A DNA stretch of 63,922 bases, counting the filler, from an uncultured bacterium (GTDB lineage Bacteria > CAYJOG01), in NCBI GenBank assembly GCA_964371695.1. It is 9 parts of 9 records of this genome, joined end to end, with 100 filler letters (N's around TTAATTAATTAA, not from the genome) between each part and the next. Parts side by side here need not be neighbours in the genome. Positions count along the whole stretch, not along the records: positions 21,545 to 28,569 come from CAYJOG010000146.1; 8 more parts are not named here. One strand, given 5' to 3'. Position 1 is the stretch's first letter. The number at the start of each line of letters is the position of its first letter. Under the pieces are notes generated by a model. It was not told the origin of the DNA, made no database searches, and saw only the letters and a program-made list of their open reading frames with translations. The translations under genes were made by a program, and so were the position numbers. Shown one piece after another: positions 7,122 to 28,669 of this stretch.

Positions 7122-7221
7122 NNNNNNNNNNNNNNNNNNNNNNNNNNNNNNNNNNNNNNNNNNNNTTAATTAATTAANNNNNNNNNNNNNNNNNNNNNNN
7201 NNNNNNNNNNNNNNNNNNNNN
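7122..7221. other. Artificial contig linker (identical linkers at 14293-14392, 21445-21544, 28570-28669, 35690-35789, 42779-42878, 49831-49930, 56881-56980)
   Basis: N44-TTAATTAATTAA-N44 with stops in all frames; the contigs decrease steadily in length from ~7.1 to ~6.9 kb. Confidence 0.99.
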
Positions 7222-14292: not shown

Positions 14293-14393
14293 NNNNNNNN
14301 NNNNNNNNNNNNNNNNNNNNNNNNNNNNNNNNNNNNTTAATTAATTAANNNNNNNNNNNNNNNNNNNNNNNNNNNNNNNNNNNNNNNNNNNNG

Positions 14394-20656: not shown

Positions 20657-20703
20657 TTTCAAGATAAACCCAAAACCACTGTCTTTTGCTGCAAAATACC
20701 CCC

Positions 20704-21069
20704 ATGGGCCAACGCCCTCCCCATGCACTGGCTTTTTCGCGCCAGCTTCGGCAAGACACCACGGAAGCAGAAAAATACCTGTGGGAGTATTTGCGCAACC
20801 GTCGGGTGTTGGGCGTGAAGTTTCGCCGCCAATATCCGGTGGGAAAATATGTGCTGGATTTTTTCTGTCCGGAGATTGGTCTGGCGGTGGAGATTGATGG
20901 CAGCCAGCATCTTTCTGACGAGGGCCTGACCCACGACCAAAAACGGGATGCGTTTTTGGCTTCGCAGGATATTTTTGTTTTGCGTGTGTTCAACCATGAC
21001 GTGCTGGGAAAAACGGAAGTGGTTCTTCAGGCCATTGCTGCGGAAATTCTTGCCAGGAAGAAGGATTGA
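20704..21069 (+). CDS. DUF559 / Vsr-like restriction-endonuclease-fold protein
   Basis: RQLRQDTTEAEKYLW..LRNRR...KFRRQYPVGKYVLDFFC....LAVEIDGSQH...D.KRD.FL. Confidence 0.92.
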   Translation: MGQRPPHALAFSRQLRQDTTEAEKYLWEYLRNRRVLGVKFRRQYPVGKYVLDFFCPEIGLAVEIDGSQHLSDEGLTHDQKRDAFLASQDIFVLRVFNHDVLGKTEVVLQAIAAEILARKKD

Positions 21070-21421: not shown

Positions 21422-21561
21422 GGCAGGGTGGCAAAGGTTTGGATNNNNNNNNNNNNNNNNNNNNNNNNNNNNNNNNNNNNNNNNNNNNTTAATTAATTAA
21501 NNNNNNNNNNNNNNNNNNNNNNNNNNNNNNNNNNNNNNNNNNNNATGTTTGCGGGTGGCTC

Positions 21562-21611
21562 TTGACAAAAGGGGCTTCATAAATTAAATTAGCGATGTAT
21601 GTACGTACATC
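21562..21611 (+). promoter_or_regulatory. Sigma70-type promoter and palindromic operator of the TA operon
   Basis: TTGACA(21562)-17 nt-TAAATT(21585); perfect palindrome ATGTACGTACAT at 21599-21610; RBS AAGGAG at 21615. Confidence 0.6.
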
Positions 21612-21625
21612 TAAAAGGAGAAAGA

Positions 21626-21991
21626 ATGTCATACACAAATCCAAAATCGGTTGTTTCGCCCAAAAACCGGCTCGATGATTTAAACGTCCTTTTTGATAAA
21701 GGGCAGGGAGGCTGGTCTCTTGCCCAGTTCACATGGGATGGGGAGGAGGGGTGTCTTGGCTTGCGCTGGAATGGTGACGAAAAGAGTGCAGGGAACCCTC
21801 AATCCAGAAGGCCGACCTGGTTTGTGGTTCCAAAAGAGCTTGCGCCGGCACTGCGCCAAGCGATAAAAAGCATCAAGGCACAGGCGCAATCGGACCTCAT
21901 GGCGGGTTATGCCGGAATGGCCGCTGATACAGGCCGCGAACAGGAAGCCCAGGAATGGTCTGAAAATCTGCTCAAAGATGCCACCGAATGA
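21626..21991 (+). CDS. Putative antitoxin: uncharacterised N-terminal domain plus MazF-binding-type acidic tail
   Basis: ATGA overlap with the toxin gene; C-terminus DLMAGYAGMAADTGREQEAQEWSE resembles tails of PemK/MazF antitoxins. Confidence 0.7.
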   Translation: MSYTNPKSVVSPKNRLDDLNVLFDKGQGGWSLAQFTWDGEEGCLGLRWNGDEKSAGNPQSRRPTWFVVPKELAPALRQAIKSIKAQAQSDLMAGYAGMAADTGREQEAQEWSENLLKDATE

Positions 21992-22314
21992 AGCGTGGTG
22001 AGGTGTGGTGGGTTTCGTTTGACGCATCCCTGGGTGGCGAAATCAAAAAAACACGCCCGGCGGTGATTGTGAGCAACGACGCCGCCAACATGCATCTGAA
22101 CCGTGTGGTGGTAGTGCCGCTTTCCAGTCAGGTGGCCAGAATTTTTCCTGCCGAGGCGTTGGTGAAGATGGGAGAAACCCCCGGCAAGGCCATGGCAGAC
22201 CAGATCATGACGGCAGACAAAAAACGCCTCATTTCAAAAATGGGGATTCTGTCTCATGAAGACATGGCCGGTGTGGAAAACGCCTTGCTGCTGCACCTTG
22301 GCATGAAGCGATGA
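21988..22314 (+). CDS. mazF: PemK/MazF-family toxin
   Basis: MKRGEVWWVSFD...GGEIKKTRPAVIVSND..N......VVPLSS...KAMADQIMTADKKRL. Confidence 0.95.
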   Translation: MKRGEVWWVSFDASLGGEIKKTRPAVIVSNDAANMHLNRVVVVPLSSQVARIFPAEALVKMGETPGKAMADQIMTADKKRLISKMGILSHEDMAGVENALLLHLGMKR

Positions 22315-22340
22315 CCCGACGGGGGGGTGTCAATACCCAG

Positions 22341-22748
22341 TTAGCCCTTCAACTCACCATAACTGCGGCCGGTTTCGGGGGTCTGGCTCACGGGCAGGCC
22401 GCTTGCCTGCCAGCCCGGCTCGCCGGTGTGGGGGTTGCCGCCAAAACCGCAGGCCACGTTGGCCAGTTGGGTGAACCCCGCCGCCTCCAGCCGTTGAATG
22501 GCCATCATGCTGCGGCCCCCTGCGGCGCAGCCCACCAGCAGTTTGGTGTCCGGTGCAAAGTGTTTGGCTGTCACGGCTTCGAAATCGCTGTTGGCCGCCA
22601 TGCCCTCCGGGCCGCGAAACACCACGGGAATGTTCCAGGCCCCGGCAGGGTGTCCGGCGGCGAACTCTTCTTCGGTGCGCACGTCCAGATAGGTGTAGCC
22701 CTCGTGGCACATTTTCTCGTGGGCTTCCTTGGGCAAAAACTCGGTCAT
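22341..22748 (-). CDS. Single-domain rhodanese
   Basis: YLDVRTEEEFAAGHPAGAWNIP; active-site CAAGGRS. Confidence 0.93.
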   Translation of the reverse strand: MTEFLPKEAHEKMCHEGYTYLDVRTEEEFAAGHPAGAWNIPVVFRGPEGMAANSDFEAVTAKHFAPDTKLLVGCAAGGRSMMAIQRLEAAGFTQLANVACGFGGNPHTGEPGWQASGLPVSQTPETGRSYGELKG

Positions 22749-22800
22749 GGGAGGTTCCTTCTTTTTTGATGTGCAGCGGGCGGCTGAAAGTTTTTTCTGA

Positions 22801-22870
22801 GCAGCGGCGACGCCCCCGTCGCCGTATTGGTTTTTCTGGTGTTTGGCGCGACGGGGGCGTCGCGCCTACT
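22801..22870. repeat. Family C inverted REP pair
   Basis: GCGGCGACGCCCCCGTCGCCG ... GGCGCGACGGGGGCGTCGCGCCTACT. Confidence 0.7.
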
Positions 22871-22956
22871 CATTCATAAAAAGCACTCTTATTAAAGGCA
22901 CACATGCTAAAAGCTCTCTGGAAGTTTTAGCCGCCTGGACCCTGTTGCAGAACGGG

Positions 22957-23691
22957 TCAGCCCAGGGGCGGCAGCACCGGCGGGGGTGGGGCCTCACCCA
23001 GCAGCACAATCTGATCCTGCGTGAAGCCCTTGGCCAGCAGAATCTGCCGCACGCTGGTCATCATCTCCTGCGAGCCGCACACCATGGCCATCATGGTGCG
23101 GGCGTTCAACGGCGGCATCTGATAGAGCATGGCCTGCACCCGCGTGGGGGGCGTGCCCTGGTGGGCGCTGTAGGCCAGGTTCAGTTCGATGCCCGCTTTT
23201 TCAAGGGCGGTCCACTGGGGTTTCAGGGCCAGGTGATCGGGCTGTTTCAAGCCGTGTACCCATTGCCAGCCCTCGGTGGGTTTGCCCAGGGTCTGCATGT
23301 GTTTCACCAGCGCCAGAAAAGGCGCGGACCCGGTGCCCATGGTGAGCACCAGCACCTTGCGGCCCCGGATTTCGCGGAAGGGAATGCCGGGGCCCTGGAT
23401 GTCGGACATCTTGAGCGTGGTTTGTCCCCGGGTGATCATGTGGCCCAGGCGGCTTTCGGTCTTGATGAGCACCTGCAGGGTTTTGCTGCTGGGCGGGTTG
23501 AGAAAGGTGAAGAACATGGGGTTGCCATCGTTGCCCTCCACCGCCACATATTGCCCCGGCACGTCATAACCCTTGGTGACATGGGGGGCCTTGAGGGTGA
23601 GCAGGGTCATGACGGCGGTCGCCTTCTGGGCCTTTTGCACCACGGCCTCGGAATAGTCGAACGTTGGGGGGGCAACCTCCGCCACGGCCAT
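22957..23691 (-). CDS. FNR-like FAD/NAD(P)-binding oxidoreductase
   Basis: PGQYV, GPG.P, MGTGSAPF, VCGS..M; start at MAVAE overlaps the upstream stop (TGATG). Confidence 0.7.
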   Translation of the reverse strand: MAVAEVAPPTFDYSEAVVQKAQKATAVMTLLTLKAPHVTKGYDVPGQYVAVEGNDGNPMFFTFLNPPSSKTLQVLIKTESRLGHMITRGQTTLKMSDIQGPGIPFREIRGRKVLVLTMGTGSAPFLALVKHMQTLGKPTEGWQWVHGLKQPDHLALKPQWTALEKAGIELNLAYSAHQGTPPTRVQAMLYQMPPLNARTMMAMVCGSQEMMTSVRQILLAKGFTQDQIVLLGEAPPPPVLPPLG

Positions 23692-24530
23692 CAGTTTTTC
23701 CACAACAACTTCCTTTCCAGCCCTTTCATCACGGCCTTGAATTCGCCAGCCTCGTCGGGATGCGAGGTGGCGATCATTTGCAAATCCAGCAGGGCGCGGG
23801 CATGAAACTCGTGTTTGAGACACAACATGGCCCGTTCGCGGCGCAGTTGCCACGCGTCGGGCGTGAGTTGAAGAATGCGGTTGAGGGCACACAGGGCCGC
23901 GCCCGTGTCGTGCCGTTGCAGGTGCAGAATCTTCAGGTTCTGCAATATCCGCACCAGAATGCTTCGGTTGTCCACGCGGGTGAGGTATTCCTCGTGCAGG
24001 CGCACACGGCCACCGTGCAGGTCGTGGAAAAAATCCTGGCACCGGTGGTGGCTCAGCACCTCGCCCTGGCGGAACGTGTCTACAAAATAAGGATCGTTCT
24101 CACACCGGAACCCCACCATGAAGTGCCCCGGCAGGCCCACGCCATACACATCCAGCCCCACCCGATGGGCCAGTTCGATATAAATCAGCGAAAGCGTCAC
24201 CGGAATGCCCGTGCGCCGCAACAACACCTGGCTCAGACGGCTGTTGCGGGGGTCGTAATAGTCCTGCTGGTTGGGGGTGAAACGCTTGAGGGTGAACAGA
24301 AAATGGTTCAGCAGCCGCACGGCCTCAAAGGGGTCCGCCGGGTTCAGACCCAGGCGGCGCACTTCCTCGCTCATCTCCTGAAAAAGTTCGTGGTGCATGG
24401 CCACGTCCAGCGTGGGGTGAGCATCCAGGTCCAGCAGCAGCGCCCCTTCGGCCAGGGGCAGGACATCCTCATGGAGGGTCAGAAAATCCCCTAGTTTTTT
24501 CTCTGCCAGTATCTGACCCACCGAAAGCAT
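23691..24530 (-). CDS. SirB1-family transglutaminase-like + TPR protein
   Basis: DYYDPRNS.L..VL.RRTGIPVTLSLIY, GVGLPGHF, ILVRILQNLK, RRERA. Confidence 0.9.
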   Translation of the reverse strand: MLSVGQILAEKKLGDFLTLHEDVLPLAEGALLLDLDAHPTLDVAMHHELFQEMSEEVRRLGLNPADPFEAVRLLNHFLFTLKRFTPNQQDYYDPRNSRLSQVLLRRTGIPVTLSLIYIELAHRVGLDVYGVGLPGHFMVGFRCENDPYFVDTFRQGEVLSHHRCQDFFHDLHGGRVRLHEEYLTRVDNRSILVRILQNLKILHLQRHDTGAALCALNRILQLTPDAWQLRRERAMLCLKHEFHARALLDLQMIATSHPDEAGEFKAVMKGLERKLLWKN

Positions 24531-24765
24531 AAGGCAGCTATTTTAGCGCTTTCGAGGGGGCGGGTCCAAAGACTGGCAGGCATGAAAGTGTTATTGATTT
24601 GGCGCAATGCAGCAAAAGGGGCCTGTGATTGCATGATTATGCGAATTTAAAATGGCGTCTGTCAAAAAAGAAACGGTTCTTGTGGATTTTTGAGGGCCTG
24701 TTTTTTATCGCCAGAACAATTCCCAGCTTGCACCGGATGCTTCCTCTTCTTATAGTGGCCAGCCC

Positions 24766-25302
24766 GTGACACACGCGCTGACTCCAGGAACCATTGTTTT
24801 TCACCCCGACCACGGCCACTGCCAAGTGGTGGGCGAGCGCGAAGAAGTGCTGCTGCGGGTGCCCACCCAGGTGATAGAACTGACCACCCTTGGGGAAAGG
24901 CCTGTGTTGTTCCGTGTGCCCCTCACCGAAAAAGGACGCATTCAGCGCCTGCGGCCCCTCACCAGCGCGGCGGATCTGGAAAACGCCCTGCTACTGCTCA
25001 AAGAACCGGCCAGCCAGTGGGAAGCCAACGAAGACACGCGCAAAAAGGCCTATCAGGAAAAGTTCCGGGCCGGACGCATTGAAGACCTGGTGGGAATGTT
25101 GCGGGACGTGAACAAGCTGAAAAATACCGTGGCCATCGGCACGGGAGATCGCAAGGCCATGGACCTGGCCAAAATGCACCTGCTTCTGGAAATGATGCTG
25201 GTGCTGAACCTGACCAAACTCGAAGCCCGCAAACGGGTGGAAGATCTGATGAAACCAGTCAAAAAAGAAAAGGCGAACAGCACGAAGGGGCATAAATCAT
25301 GA
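24766..25302 (+). CDS. CarD-family RNA polymerase-binding protein
   Basis: G..VFHPDHG, RVP......LRPL, W.....R...Y.EK...G. Confidence 0.8.
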   Translation: MTHALTPGTIVFHPDHGHCQVVGEREEVLLRVPTQVIELTTLGERPVLFRVPLTEKGRIQRLRPLTSAADLENALLLLKEPASQWEANEDTRKKAYQEKFRAGRIEDLVGMLRDVNKLKNTVAIGTGDRKAMDLAKMHLLLEMMLVLNLTKLEARKRVEDLMKPVKKEKANSTKGHKS

Positions 25303-25568
25303 GCACCATGCAGACGGCACGGCCAAAACGGGAACGCAAAAAACGCTGGGGCGGGCGTGGCAAACGCCGCACCAATCAGGCCCTCGCGGGGGTAAAAGGC
25401 GAGCTGGACTTCAAAAGCACCGAACTGATGCGCCAGTTCATCAGCCCCGACCGCGGCAAGATTCTGCCCCGCAAACGCACCGCCGCCACCGCCAAACAGC
25501 AACGCAAAGTGGCCCGCGCCGTGCGCCGCGCCCGCCAGATGGGCTACATCCCCTATCACCTGGACTGA
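25299..25568 (+). CDS. rpsR: 30S ribosomal protein S18 (Cys-free form)
   Basis: LDFK..ELMRQFISPDRGKILPRKRT....KQQRKVARAVRRARQMGYIPY. Confidence 0.95.
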   Translation: MSTMQTARPKRERKKRWGGRGKRRTNQALAGVKGELDFKSTELMRQFISPDRGKILPRKRTAATAKQQRKVARAVRRARQMGYIPYHLD

Positions 25569-25675
25569 CTTGCCTGTAGCCCCGGCGTCCCGCCGGGGGC
25601 AAAAAAACCGCCACAGGCGGCGCCCTCACCGCGCCCACTCCCCAAATTTTTATTCACCGACCTGGCAAAGGCCGC

Positions 25676-26230
25676 TCAGTCTTCTGCCTGCTCCAGCCCA
25701 CCGCCCTGGGCCACCAGGGGCACGGGGCGGCGGATGGCTCCTTTGCGGATACGCCTGCGCTGCCACGCCCTCAGCACGGGAAACGCCACGGTGTAGACCA
25801 GCACCGTCAGAAGAAATCCGCAGATGGCCAGTCCCACGCCAAAGGGGGTGAGGTAATCCAGAAAAAACTGGAAATCCCGCGTGTCCATCAGCAGTTGGGG
25901 CTCCAGGCGGTGCAGCAGGGTGCGGGCCTTCATGGGTTTGACGCCCATCAGCCAGCACCCCAACCGGTAACTGGCCAGATAAAACGGTGGAATGGTGTAG
26001 AAGTTGAGAATGGTGACGCTGCTGATGAACGCCAGCCGCCGTTCGCGGCGCACCCAGCCGGCCAGCAGCACCACCACCGCCGCGCCAATGCCCGGTATCA
26101 CCGAAATCAGTGTGCCCCAGGCCAGGGCCAGGGCATTGCCGTGGGGGTCTTCGCTCAGCGCCAGCACCATGTCCTTGAGCCGCAGGGACAGATCGTGAAA
26201 TTTCTTTTTCATTCGTTCTTTCAATTGCAT
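25676..26230 (-). CDS. DUF2062 membrane protein
   Basis: PH..ALALAWG.LISVIP, N.YT.PPFY..SYRLG.WLMG. Confidence 0.8.
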   Translation of the reverse strand: MQLKERMKKKFHDLSLRLKDMVLALSEDPHGNALALAWGTLISVIPGIGAAVVVLLAGWVRRERRLAFISSVTILNFYTIPPFYLASYRLGCWLMGVKPMKARTLLHRLEPQLLMDTRDFQFFLDYLTPFGVGLAICGFLLTVLVYTVAFPVLRAWQRRRIRKGAIRRPVPLVAQGGGLEQAED

Positions 26231-26610
26231 CAGCGTTGTAGCAGCTCTATGCGGTAACCGTCAGGGTCTTCGGCAAAAGCCAGCACCGTGTGGCCGTGCT
26301 GCATGGGGCCCGGTTCGCGCACCACGCGGCCCCCGGCGGCGCGGATGCGGTCGCAGGCGGCATGAATGTCCGCCACCCCCAAGGCGATGTGGCCAAAACC
26401 ATTGCCCAGGTCGTAACTTTCGGTGTCCCAGTTGTGGGTGAGTTCAATCACCGCCTGCTCGTTTTCGGGGCCATAACCCACAAAAGCCAGCGTGAAGCGA
26501 CCACCCGGATAATCCTGACGGCGCAACAGGGTCATGCCCAGCGCCTGGGTGTAAAAGTTAATGGAGCTGTCCAGGTTCCCCACCCGGAGCATGGTGTGCA
26601 GAATTCTCAT
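26230..26610 (-). CDS. gloA: Lactoylglutathione lyase
   Basis: [41 protein letters not shown]. Confidence 0.97.
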
Positions 26611-26632
26611 GAAGGGATATTAGCCGCAGAGT

Positions 26633-28188
26633 TTATCCCGGCCACAGACCCGCGAAAGACCAGCCCCCAAAGAAAAACCCCGGCTCGTTGCGAAAGGCCC
26701 ACAGGTAACGCCAGACAAAATAAACAAACCCTGTGGCACTGAGGGCATTGAGCACCACAAGGCCCCGCAACAGCCACAGGGGCCAGCGTTCATACACTTT
26801 TCCCAGGCACAACCACAACGCCGGAATCACCACCAGCAGATAACGCCCGCTGGGGGCGTAGATGTCCAGGCTGTTGAGGAAAATCATCAGCAGGCCCAGG
26901 GGCGCACCCAGCACGCTGATGGCCCCCAGGGGCGTTTTCAGCCACTGCCCCGCCCGCAGCGTCAGCCCCCCGCCCCGCGGCCCCCCCCGCCCCAGCCCCC
27001 CACCGGCGCTCCGGCTGAAAACCGGCGCCATGGCCCCGCCAGCGCCGCGCCCCAACCGTCCGGCGGTCCAGANNNNNNNNNNCCCTTGTACAGGGTAAAG
27101 GCCGATACCGCCACACTTTGCACGGTGAGTGTAAAATAGAGATCGTTGATGGTTTGAGTGACCAGCCCCACCAGCCCCCAGCCCAGCGCCACACCCAGCC
27201 CCAGCACACCACCTGCGATCAGGCTGAAAACCGGCGACATGGCCCCGCCTGCGCCGCGCACAAACAGTCCGGCGTTCCAGAAATTGTTGGCGAAATCCTT
27301 GAGGAAAATGAGCAGTTGCGCCGGGTCGGCGGGGTTCAGGCGAGAGGCGGGAATAATGGTTTTGACCAGTGGCGTGGCAAAAGGGTGGCCATAGAGCCAC
27401 TGGTTGCGCAAAAAATACCACCCCCCCCCCAGCATGAGCGCCCCCAGCAGCCACAGACCACGGGAAATAGTGGGCCACACCCCTCGGCGGGGCAGGGCCA
27501 GGATTTCACTCAGCACCACAGCGGGCAGCAGAAACACAAAAAAAGCCTTGCTGCCAAACGAAAACCCCGCCGCCAGACAGGCCCACTTCCAATGGCTGTC
27601 GCCCCGCGCCAGAAAATAAAGAAACATGGCCCCGAAGGCCACCACGCCGGCGTCGTTGTTCACCGTGGCGAAGCTGGCGATGAGAGTGTGCAGCAGCAGC
27701 GTGGCCCCCCACACCTGCACCGCCAGGGGCGGCGGCAGACACAGGGCATAAAGTCTGTAGCAGAAAAAAGCGAAGAGGCCGCCGAACAGCAGAACGCCCC
27801 ACAGCCGCAGCGCCAGCAGGCCGGGACCGTCGGGTTTCCAGGGGTCGGCCACCCTGAAGAAATAACCTGCGGGCGCCAGCAGGGCGTAATACACCGGCGG
27901 CTGGTGGGCCTCGTGGGTTTCGTGCCGGGGGTCGCTTTTCAGCCCCAGTTTGTGGGCATTGGTCATCAGCGGAAAACCCCGCCCCAGGCGCAGCGAATCC
28001 ACATAGGCCATGTGGCCGATTTCGTCATAGGGCAAAAACGGGGCCGTGGCCCGTGCGAAAAGCACCATGAGAAAAAAAAACAGGCCGCCGTAAAGCCACA
28101 GGAACAGCCGGTGATGTCTGGACCAGAAGCGCCCTGGCACAAGGTCATTCGTTGGTGCTGCGTCCGGTTGTGACGGCGGTGAGGACAC
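26633..28188 (-). CDS. GT-C (ArnT/DUF2142-like) membrane glycosyltransferase, interrupted by gap 27073-27082
   Basis: PF..YDE.GH..Y, HEAHQPPVYYALLA, LRL, VNND, and C-terminal GRYLL in a second frame; start uncertain. Confidence 0.75.
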
Positions 28189-28417
28189 CGCCGCTACTCC
28201 GGTTTCGGGTATTCAATCGGGCAAAGGAGCGTCATGGTTTGTACCGATTTTTCTGCTGTTTGGCGCGACGGTGGCGTCGCGCGGATGGCCGATCCGAACA
28301 AGATCATCGAGATCANNNNNNNNNNAACTCCGCCACAGGCGCTTCTTGTTTTCAACGTTTTTTTCTGTGTTGTGGGGCCCGGGGGGGGCCGCCCCTACTC
28401 CATTTTTTAGACGGTAA

Positions 28418-28569
28418 TTAAAACATGTGGCCGATGCCGAAGTGGAACTGGGCGCTGTTGTCGTCCAGGTTCTGGGCGTAGTCCAGACGCACCGGCCCCA
28501 CACCAAAGGCGGGAATCTTGAAACGTATGCCCAGGCCCACCGAGCTGTGCAGGTTGTCCAGGCCAATTT
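28418..28569 (-). CDS. C-terminal fragment of an Omp85 (BamA/TamA) protein
   Basis: Own translation: SSVGLGIRFKIPAFGVGPVRLDYA...QFHFGIGHMF* with terminal Phe beta-signal. Confidence 0.85.
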
Positions 28570-28669
28570 NNNNNNNNNNNNNNNNNNNNNNNNNNNNNNN
28601 NNNNNNNNNNNNNTTAATTAATTAANNNNNNNNNNNNNNNNNNNNNNNNNNNNNNNNNNNNNNNNNNNN

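Follow-up and report, generated by a model that had tools for sequence, protein, structure and literature searches.

The window analysed here is a stretch of 63,922 nucleotides from an uncultured bacterium (GTDB lineage CAYJOG01, assembly GCA_964371695.1). It carries a mazF/pemK toxin gene (product P0001) and, directly upstream, a gene encoding a 121-residue protein (P0002) that has a tryptophan-rich, beta-stranded N-terminal domain and an acidic C-terminal tail. The locus is very probably a MazF toxin-antitoxin module in which the tail neutralises the toxin, a conclusion drawn from two sources, homology and the strict linkage between tail and MazF. Judging from sequence, we consider it fairly probable that the N-terminal domain is a portable, DNA-binding head through which the antitoxin regulates its own operon. 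MazEF modules are a known type of system, and the novelty here lies in the head domain, which is undescribed. The DNA-binding heads recognised in type II antitoxins are few, namely ribbon-helix-helix (RHH), AbrB, helix-turn-helix (HTH) and Phd/YefM. Listings and abstracts of the literature on new antitoxin DNA-binding domains, on PC4-like antitoxins and on MazE9/MazF9 do not describe the domain, which is no proof of its absence from print.

P0001 matches the PemK_toxin family (Pfam PF02452) with an E-value of 6.4e-26 and a score of 91.1 bits against a cut-off of 23.1, and its closest solved relative is MazF9 of M. tuberculosis (profile A4, E 2.2e-24). The antitoxin gene is co-directional with mazF and, as the initial annotation had recognised, coupled to it; the coupling is translational, by an ATGA overlap at 21988-21991. 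Both features expected of a MazEF system, a PemK/MazF endoribonuclease domain and a coupled small antitoxin gene directly upstream, are present.

The tail of P0002 (residues 89-121) has a net charge of -6 and a pI of 4.1 and is modelled, with moderate confidence in the full-length model, as the last part of a single long helix (residues 70-120), which bears out the acidic C-terminal helix noted initially. A search of reference genomes, one per species, with the pattern QSRGxPTWF returned 119 stretches, 105 of which were confirmed as relatives of P0002, and 80 loci were kept. Twenty-four of these loci encode the tail, and in all 24 the antitoxin gene is followed directly by a P0001-like MazF gene (E 1e-25 to 1e-43). 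Of the 56 loci without the tail, none has a close MazF within 2.5 kb, and one (L048) carries a distant PemK. The comparison of neighbourhoods with and without the tail, suggested earlier as a check, thus links tail and MazF without exception. Searching by words with only the tail as query recovered no homologues beyond the closest two.

The same tail occurs behind other N-termini. A tail-only profile (A6, 35 positions) found matches in 24 of 401 Acidobacteriota genomes; one of the 24, G054, is flagged as unpublished and is the source of locus L089. The best 22 places, classified by N-terminus, comprise 3 with the beta domain, 14 with a short RHH-like N-terminus (75-84 residues with the tail), 1 with a third N-terminus (L101) and 4 that are fragments or unclear. 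A MazF ORF could be read directly downstream in 13 of the 14 RHH-like places, L089 included (all but L087). The term RHH-like describes these short partners and is not a statement of family membership: sub-threshold matches to RHH_6 and/or VAPB_antitox were obtained for 9 of the 12 proteins scanned, and the match of the short N-terminus to the first strand of CopG was insignificant (E 0.58). The layout described as usual in the initial annotation, with the tail following an RHH-type domain, has weak backing in these matches. The antitoxin of L101 (genome G142), which is 78 residues long, shares the tail and the MazF subfamily, and its N-terminus is unlike both the RHH-like and the beta-rich forms; it has no Pfam match at E≤1 and no upstream copy of the TAYRTA motif described below.

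When the profile of the tail-bearing beta-domain family (A5) was compared by hhalign with that of the RHH-like antitoxins of about 76 residues (A7), only the last 37 columns aligned (probability 98.3%, E 1.6e-14), and the N-terminal parts were left unaligned. In a MazF tree of 39 sequences, from which L089 was left out, toxins with either partner type fall within one subfamily. Partner labels cluster in this tree (3 changes versus 11.1 in shuffles), although the two types are not separated into clean clades, and the tree allows more than one number and direction of swaps; the Chromatiaceae trio and L085 are placed among the RHH-type toxins with unstarred support. Homologous tails, N-terminal parts that do not align and a single MazF subfamily support the view, advanced in the initial annotation, that the head has been swapped.

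Residues 1-69 of P0002 include four tryptophans, and the full-length model shows three long strands, short strands and a helix. Modelled alone from a 135-row alignment (pLDDT 89.1, pTM 0.78), residues 1-86 form strands at 16-24, 30-37, 40-49 and 62-64, followed by a helix at 70-85. Among the 135 rows, R47, N49 and P58 are conserved in 100% and W48 and W65 in 99%; G50, G56, Q59, S60, R61, T64 and F66 are likewise invariant or near-invariant. The near-invariant polar and aromatic residues lie where strand 3 ends and in the loop that follows it.

P0002 matched no Pfam or NCBIfam family at E≤1, the RHH and AbrB/MazE_antitoxin models included, and no PADLOC model. The PHROGs collection gave two insignificant matches, both on the tail; searches of PDB sequences by phmmer and by profile gave none; and the Atlas returned only unnamed clusters, at 0.87. 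An RHH domain of the CopG/MetJ/Arc kind, with a strand and two helices in about 40-45 residues, was not found: no RHH family matches at E≤1, hhalign aligns no N-terminal part and the predicted secondary structure is different. The swapped-hairpin AbrB-like domain of PF04014 was not found either, with no Pfam match at E≤1 and a model made of three long meander strands and a helix. The domain is therefore, as first described, a tryptophan-rich beta domain unlike RHH and AbrB, and neither a family nor a fold of known antitoxin DNA-binding domains was matched.

Nor is the fusion a one-off, a possibility that the initial annotation had kept in mind: besides the 24 tail-bearing loci, a profile search of 1.84 billion cluster representatives recovered 1191 domain representatives at E≤1e-3, 662 at E≤1e-10 and 22 at E≤1e-30. 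Seventeen of the best 150 align through the tail, and most of the others are either stand-alone proteins of 85-110 residues or proteins of 190-296 residues with other C-terminal parts. Record titles cover Acidobacteriota, Alpha- and Gammaproteobacteria, Bacteroidales, Verrucomicrobia and relatives, as well as Planctomycetota, Anaerolineales, Leptotrichia, Desulfobacterales, Binatia and others, and every source name seen for a domain member is "hypothetical protein". Fifty-seven members scanned against Pfam gave no match on the domain or on the C-terminal extensions. One protein, P0125 (179 residues, a metagenome cluster representative), carries PemK and might be taken for a genuine fusion of the N-terminal domain to the toxin; we rejected this interpretation because P0125 lacks the tail as well as roughly 20 residues from the start of MazF, and so looks like a deletion derivative of the operon.

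The genes adjacent to domain members were surveyed by scanning 108 + 107 ORFs against Pfam. Co-directional partners located 4-143 nt 3' of tail-less members are PIN (L042), the RelE/barnase-type nuclease PBECR3 (L027), DUF5615 (L037), the distant PemK of L048, Mrr_cat (L032, L068), AAA_21 (L041, L047), AAA_13 (L043, L050) and RhuM (L076-L081). In most other tail-less loci no partner gene can be recognised. Several loci have integrases, resolvases, a C5 methylase or other toxin-antitoxin genes close by.

Some groups of members have a peculiar organization. In six gut Bacteroidales records (L076-L081, from Bacteroides, Phocaeicola and Parabacteroides), near-identical copies of a 109-residue member precede a RhuM-family gene by 4 nt and are flanked on their other side by a divergent parA; the occurrence of such copies in six records suggests a shared mobile element. 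Members of 181-296 residues (L052, L054, L055, L063-L066, L075; P0010, P0012, P0028-P0040 and others) carry C-terminal extensions of about 100-200 residues that match nothing in Pfam, PHROGs or PADLOC, and often have no recognisable partner. In many Acidobacteriota, a co-directional FadB-like gene of about 830 codons, which combines 3-hydroxyacyl-CoA dehydrogenase and enoyl-CoA hydratase (Pfam matches in L007 and L014, a partial match in L012), ends 60-100 nt ahead of the module formed by the N-terminal domain and MazF; ORFs of the same size are found in L008, L010, L013, L015-L017, L024 and L035. The conserved FadB-adjacent chromosomal position suggests vertical inheritance in these bacteria.

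The principal new observation is a short motif, TAYRTA (Y, pyrimidine; R, purine), found upstream of genes for domain members. Copies of TACGTA and TACATA/TATGTA were counted in the 100 nt upstream of each gene and compared with 200 dinucleotide-preserving shuffles; the tail-less set was reduced to 49 loci by removing the near-duplicates L028, L066 and L077-L081. At least one match is present in 21 of the 24 tail-bearing loci, 12 of which have two or more, whereas shuffled sequences gave a mean of 4.2 loci (maximum 11); the matches total 47, against a shuffle mean of 4.6. Among the tail-less loci, 29 of 49 have at least one match, for a total of 61 (shuffle mean 7.1 loci, maximum 12). Low-GC control windows taken elsewhere in the same loci contain the motif in only 1 of 56 and 26 of 458 cases. 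TACGTA alone occurs 22 times near tail-bearing genes and 24 times near tail-less genes, compared with 0.08 and 0.29 expected from the locus background. Within 300 nt on either side of the start codon, matches concentrate between -100 and 0 (47 of 55 for the tail-bearing set, 61 of 80 for the tail-less set).

Copies of the motif often merge into strictly alternating tracts in TAYR phase. Tracts of at least 12 nt precede 9 of 24 tail-bearing and 10 of 49 tail-less genes, 0 of 13 RHH-like genes, and occur in 1 of 514 control windows; the members that they precede include some from Acetobacter, Sphingomonas, Victivallis, Contendobacter, Pseudorhizobium and Bacteroides. In L012, L016, L017 and L071, the tract begins right after TTGACA and fills the -35/-10 spacer. 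The tract of the window is 16 nt long, and the putative operator is set in it, with TATGTA at 21598-21603 and TACGTA at 21602-21607. Its core is the palindrome ATGTACGTACAT, which does lie between promoter and ribosome-binding site, after TAAATT and before AAGGAG, as initially annotated; this 12-mer is present in a single copy across the 3.43-Mb assembly, and the reversed control pattern in none. The promoter site was found once, compared with a mean of 0.4 in shuffles.

In contrast, the RHH-like relatives, whose tail and toxin subfamily are the same, feature spaced ACGTGT/ACACGT repeats in 11 of 13 upstream regions and not a single TACATA/TATGTA. Operator type therefore follows the N-terminal domain and neither the tail nor the toxin. 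Since the tract accompanies the domain whether or not the tail and MazF are present, a new DNA-binding fold is, of the two explanations offered in the initial annotation, the one that we favour. We also considered that the TAYR tract might represent MazF cleavage sites in the leader RNA, and rejected this idea, as the tract is equally present at tail-less loci that lack MazF and lies in several cases in the -35/-10 spacer.

Taken as a whole, the operon would be a type II system of the MazEF type with a chimeric antitoxin. By analogy with MazE tails that have been solved or mapped, the segment from about residue 89 to residue 121 would lie on the MazF dimer and block the RNase site. The N-terminal 70-85 residues or so would form a dimerising, DNA-binding head that recognises the TAYRTA/(TAYR)n tract overlapping the promoter and the transcription start (21594-21611), and the near-invariant residues from R47 to F66 are compatible with a conserved surface that recognises a conserved motif. 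Bound there, the head would shut down the operon, with MazF as the probable co-repressor, in line with other type II systems. Gene structure, toxin family, tail homology, the link of tail to MazF, the spread of the domain and its link to the motif were observed; DNA binding, MazF binding and repression are what we infer. The same head would be reused alone, with other C-terminal extensions, and ahead of other toxins and defence genes, and its reuse across these contexts fits a portable autoregulatory module. A wider claim, on which we are evenly divided, is that the domain represents an undescribed DNA-binding fold, distributed over many phyla, that reads strictly alternating (TAYR)n tracts through its near-invariant RWNG, GNPQSR and TWF segments and serves as a portable autoregulatory head for at least four small toxin families, for defence-type nucleases and ATPases, and for stand-alone small regulators. 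If so, the window protein would document one case in which the domain was swapped onto a tail that neutralises MazF.

Several observations weigh against DNA binding by the head. An ACGT core is common to the RHH-like operators, and TACGTA itself occurs in 7 of 14, so that part of the signal in the tail-bearing group could belong to the promoter of the MazF module and not to the domain; the tail-less loci are independent evidence for the link between motif and domain. The motif is absent in 20 of 49 tail-less and 3 of 24 tail-bearing loci. Three loci with AAA_13/AAA_21 partners (L041, L043, L050) carry GGTATACC-like palindromes and no TAYRTA, and in a tail-bearing subclade (L002-L005, L013) the -35 and -10 boxes are surrounded by three repeats of ATAGCT type; these operator variants are candidates for co-variation of protein and operator. 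Moreover, the motif set was chosen after viewing the data, and start codons of homologues were estimated from alignments. The beta domain is not basic (net charge 0 and pI 6.1 in the window protein; median net charge 0 over 135 members, only 36% of which are positive), and its near-invariant RWNG...GNPQSR...TWF site would fit a ligand pocket as well. The fold searches are no more favourable. Foldseek, run on the N-terminal domain as had been proposed, gave a best E of 0.43 in PDB and nothing at E≤0.001 in PDB or in the viral BFVD, and a VIA search independent of Foldseek reached a best Z of 5.0 for the domain model, to an unrelated chain. The top Foldseek rows recurrently include PC4-like single-strand binders and Pur-alpha (3pm7_B, E 0.43; 4bg7_A, E 0.89; 4g06_B, E 1.1) and PipX, at TM 0.3-0.4; the PC4/Pur/Whirly-like group lies at E 0.43-2.5. 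The independent VIA search gave Z 4.1 for the PC4 homologue 5a4n and 4.1-4.3 for PipX, and VIA scoring of Foldseek's matches gave 4.4 for PipX, 4.0 for Pur-alpha and 3.5 for SP_0782; the PipX matches have an rmsd of 3.1-3.4 over 65-68 residues, and PipX reached Z 5.5 with the full-length model. All these scores fall within the range reached by unrelated folds.

The neutral charge, the invariant site, the lack of a recognised DNA-binding fold and the presence of relatives ahead of defence-type genes (AAA_21, AAA_13, Mrr_cat) would suit a sensor-antitoxin, the other explanation raised in the initial annotation. In such a protein the N-terminal domain would bind a trigger, be it a phage protein, a nucleotide or a modified base, and thereby free or destabilise the tail and release MazF, the promoter motif being read by something else. 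We regard this as unlikely. It has no positive evidence in its favour, as family searches in Pfam, NCBIfam, PHROGs and PADLOC returned no ligand-binding or sensor family; it accounts for no conserved feature other than the invariant site; and it leaves unexplained the TAYRTA tract, the sole other feature conserved across phyla, partners and C-termini. Furthermore, the domain occupies the position at which type II antitoxins have their DNA-binding domain, according to PMC10440598. It is very unlikely that the domain is a mere scaffold that dimerises or stabilises the antitoxin, with an operon left unregulated or controlled by a host factor. The neutral charge agrees with such a role, as does PMC9585320, in which the N-terminal domain of mapped MazE-type antitoxins is the dimerising part; a scaffold would not explain a motif found between -100 and 0 in many phyla, toxin-free loci included, nor the different operator of relatives with another N-terminal domain.

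The recurrence of PC4-like binders and Pur-alpha in the fold searches, with the VIA scores given above, raises a different prospect, in which the domain is a PC4/Pur-type beta-beta-beta-beta-alpha module that binds the melted promoter, or its own 5' leader bearing UAYRUA, as single-stranded nucleic acid. Tracts in which pyrimidine and purine strictly alternate melt easily if they are rich in TA steps, and the tract of the window, being located 3' of the -10 box, may be transcribed. We nevertheless hold this to be quite unlikely: the structural scores are those of unrelated folds, and in the four loci in which the tract fills the -35/-10 spacer it is promoter DNA, not leader RNA. The order of a sheet followed by a helix resembles that of small nucleic-acid-binding modules, and nothing beyond this resemblance is claimed.

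Double-stranded operator binding by the head, the reading that we prefer, can be set against known systems. The toxin belongs to the subfamily of MazEF9 of M. tuberculosis (toxin structures 6kyt and 5hjz), in which the antitoxin gene also lies upstream and neutralisation is likewise attributed to a C-terminal segment; in PMC9585320, the C-terminal peptide 43-76 of MazE9 is used in MazF9 binding assays. By analogy, the layout of MazE9/MazF9 matches that proposed for the window antitoxin. No PDB chain matches the tail profile at E≤10 (MazE9 included, if deposited), and likeness to MazE9 itself is therefore not claimed. Also comparable are the RHH-like Acidobacteriota partners of about 76 residues, whose tail is homologous to that of P0002; their N-terminal domain of about 40 residues is replaced here by an unrelated beta-rich domain of about 85 residues, and their spaced ACGTGT repeats contrast with the contiguous TAYR-phase tracts.

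MazE, PemI and Kis of the E. coli type have an AbrB-like DNA-binding head, an acidic tail that wraps the MazF dimer, and autoregulation at a palindromic operator. P0002 resembles them in the layout of head and acidic C-terminal tail and in its palindromic operator, which is putative here, but differs in having no PF04014 match at E≤1 and a predicted meander of three to four strands plus helix rather than a swapped hairpin. PC4, Pur-alpha, SP_0782 and the Tudor-like domain of PipX, the best-ranked small-domain matches, share the order of antiparallel sheet and C-terminal helix; at Foldseek E 0.43-5, TM 0.3-0.4, VIA Z 3.5-4.4 and 6-18% identity, these likenesses are not significant. The promiscuous antitoxin modules of NetFlax are comparable in that a single N-terminal domain is paired with various families of toxins or effectors, the partners in our case being MazF, PIN, PBECR3, DUF5615, Mrr, AAA ATPases and RhuM. 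As described in that report (PMC10440598), antitoxins consist of a DNA-binding domain and an independent neutralisation domain, and one DNA-binding domain can serve many toxins. The domain could not be matched to a named NetFlax node, and may be listed there under a cluster number (PMC10440598).

The features of the module are reported in the table.

Coordinates of the toxin-antitoxin module in the window
Feature	Position	Strand	Remarks
Sigma-70-like promoter	TTGACA 21562-21567, 17-nt spacer, TAAATT 21585-21590	+	consensus match only, 10/12
Putative operator, imperfect 9+9 inverted repeat	21594-21611		perfect 12-nt core inside
Perfect 12-nt palindrome ATGTACGTACAT	21599-21610		core of the putative operator
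Ribosome-binding site AAGGAG	21615-21620	+	5 nt ahead of the ATG; read from the sequence
Antitoxin gene (P0002, 121 aa)	21626-21991	+	ATG at 21626
Antitoxin N-terminal domain, residues 1-86	21626-21883	+	from model and conservation
Antitoxin acidic C-terminal tail, residues 89-121	21890-21988	+	putative MazF-neutralising segment
mazF/pemK toxin gene (P0001, 108 aa)	21988-22314	+	overlaps the antitoxin stop by ATGA

The source assembly consists of 672 contigs totalling 3.43 Mb and is 83% complete. The window is a chain of contigs of this metagenome-assembled genome, joined by N44-TTAATTAATTAA-N44 linkers (7122-7221, 14293-14392, 21445-21544, 28570-28669 and more beyond) across which features are not readable; 10-N scaffold gaps also occur within contig pieces. 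The module lies at the very start of the piece 21545-28569, so that its upstream genomic context is not readable. The antitoxin gene is, as had been pointed out, comparatively AT-rich (53.3% GC), but is not alone in this: mazF has 54.4% GC and the whole cassette is low in GC, the gene that follows having 64.7% and the window as a whole 60.4%. The genes located 3' of the module are housekeeping genes, encoding a rhodanese, an oxidoreductase, a transglutaminase-like protein, CarD and a glyoxalase. The contig before this piece holds a 127-residue ORF (20686-21069, + strand) that matches DUF559, an endonuclease-like domain (E 8.2e-32); since a contig joint separates this ORF from the module, the two are unrelated.

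If the head binds DNA as proposed, the domain would constitute a new class of small bacterial transcription regulator, comprising more than 1000 sequence clusters from many phyla, with a predicted recognition motif that is directly testable, and would explain many of the "hypothetical" genes found ahead of toxins and defence genes. The locus itself is a clean natural case of antitoxin modularity, in which one toxin subfamily and a homologous tail are combined with at least three N-terminal domains. The RHH-like and beta-domain forms use different operators, and provide raw material for models of toxin-antitoxin rewiring.

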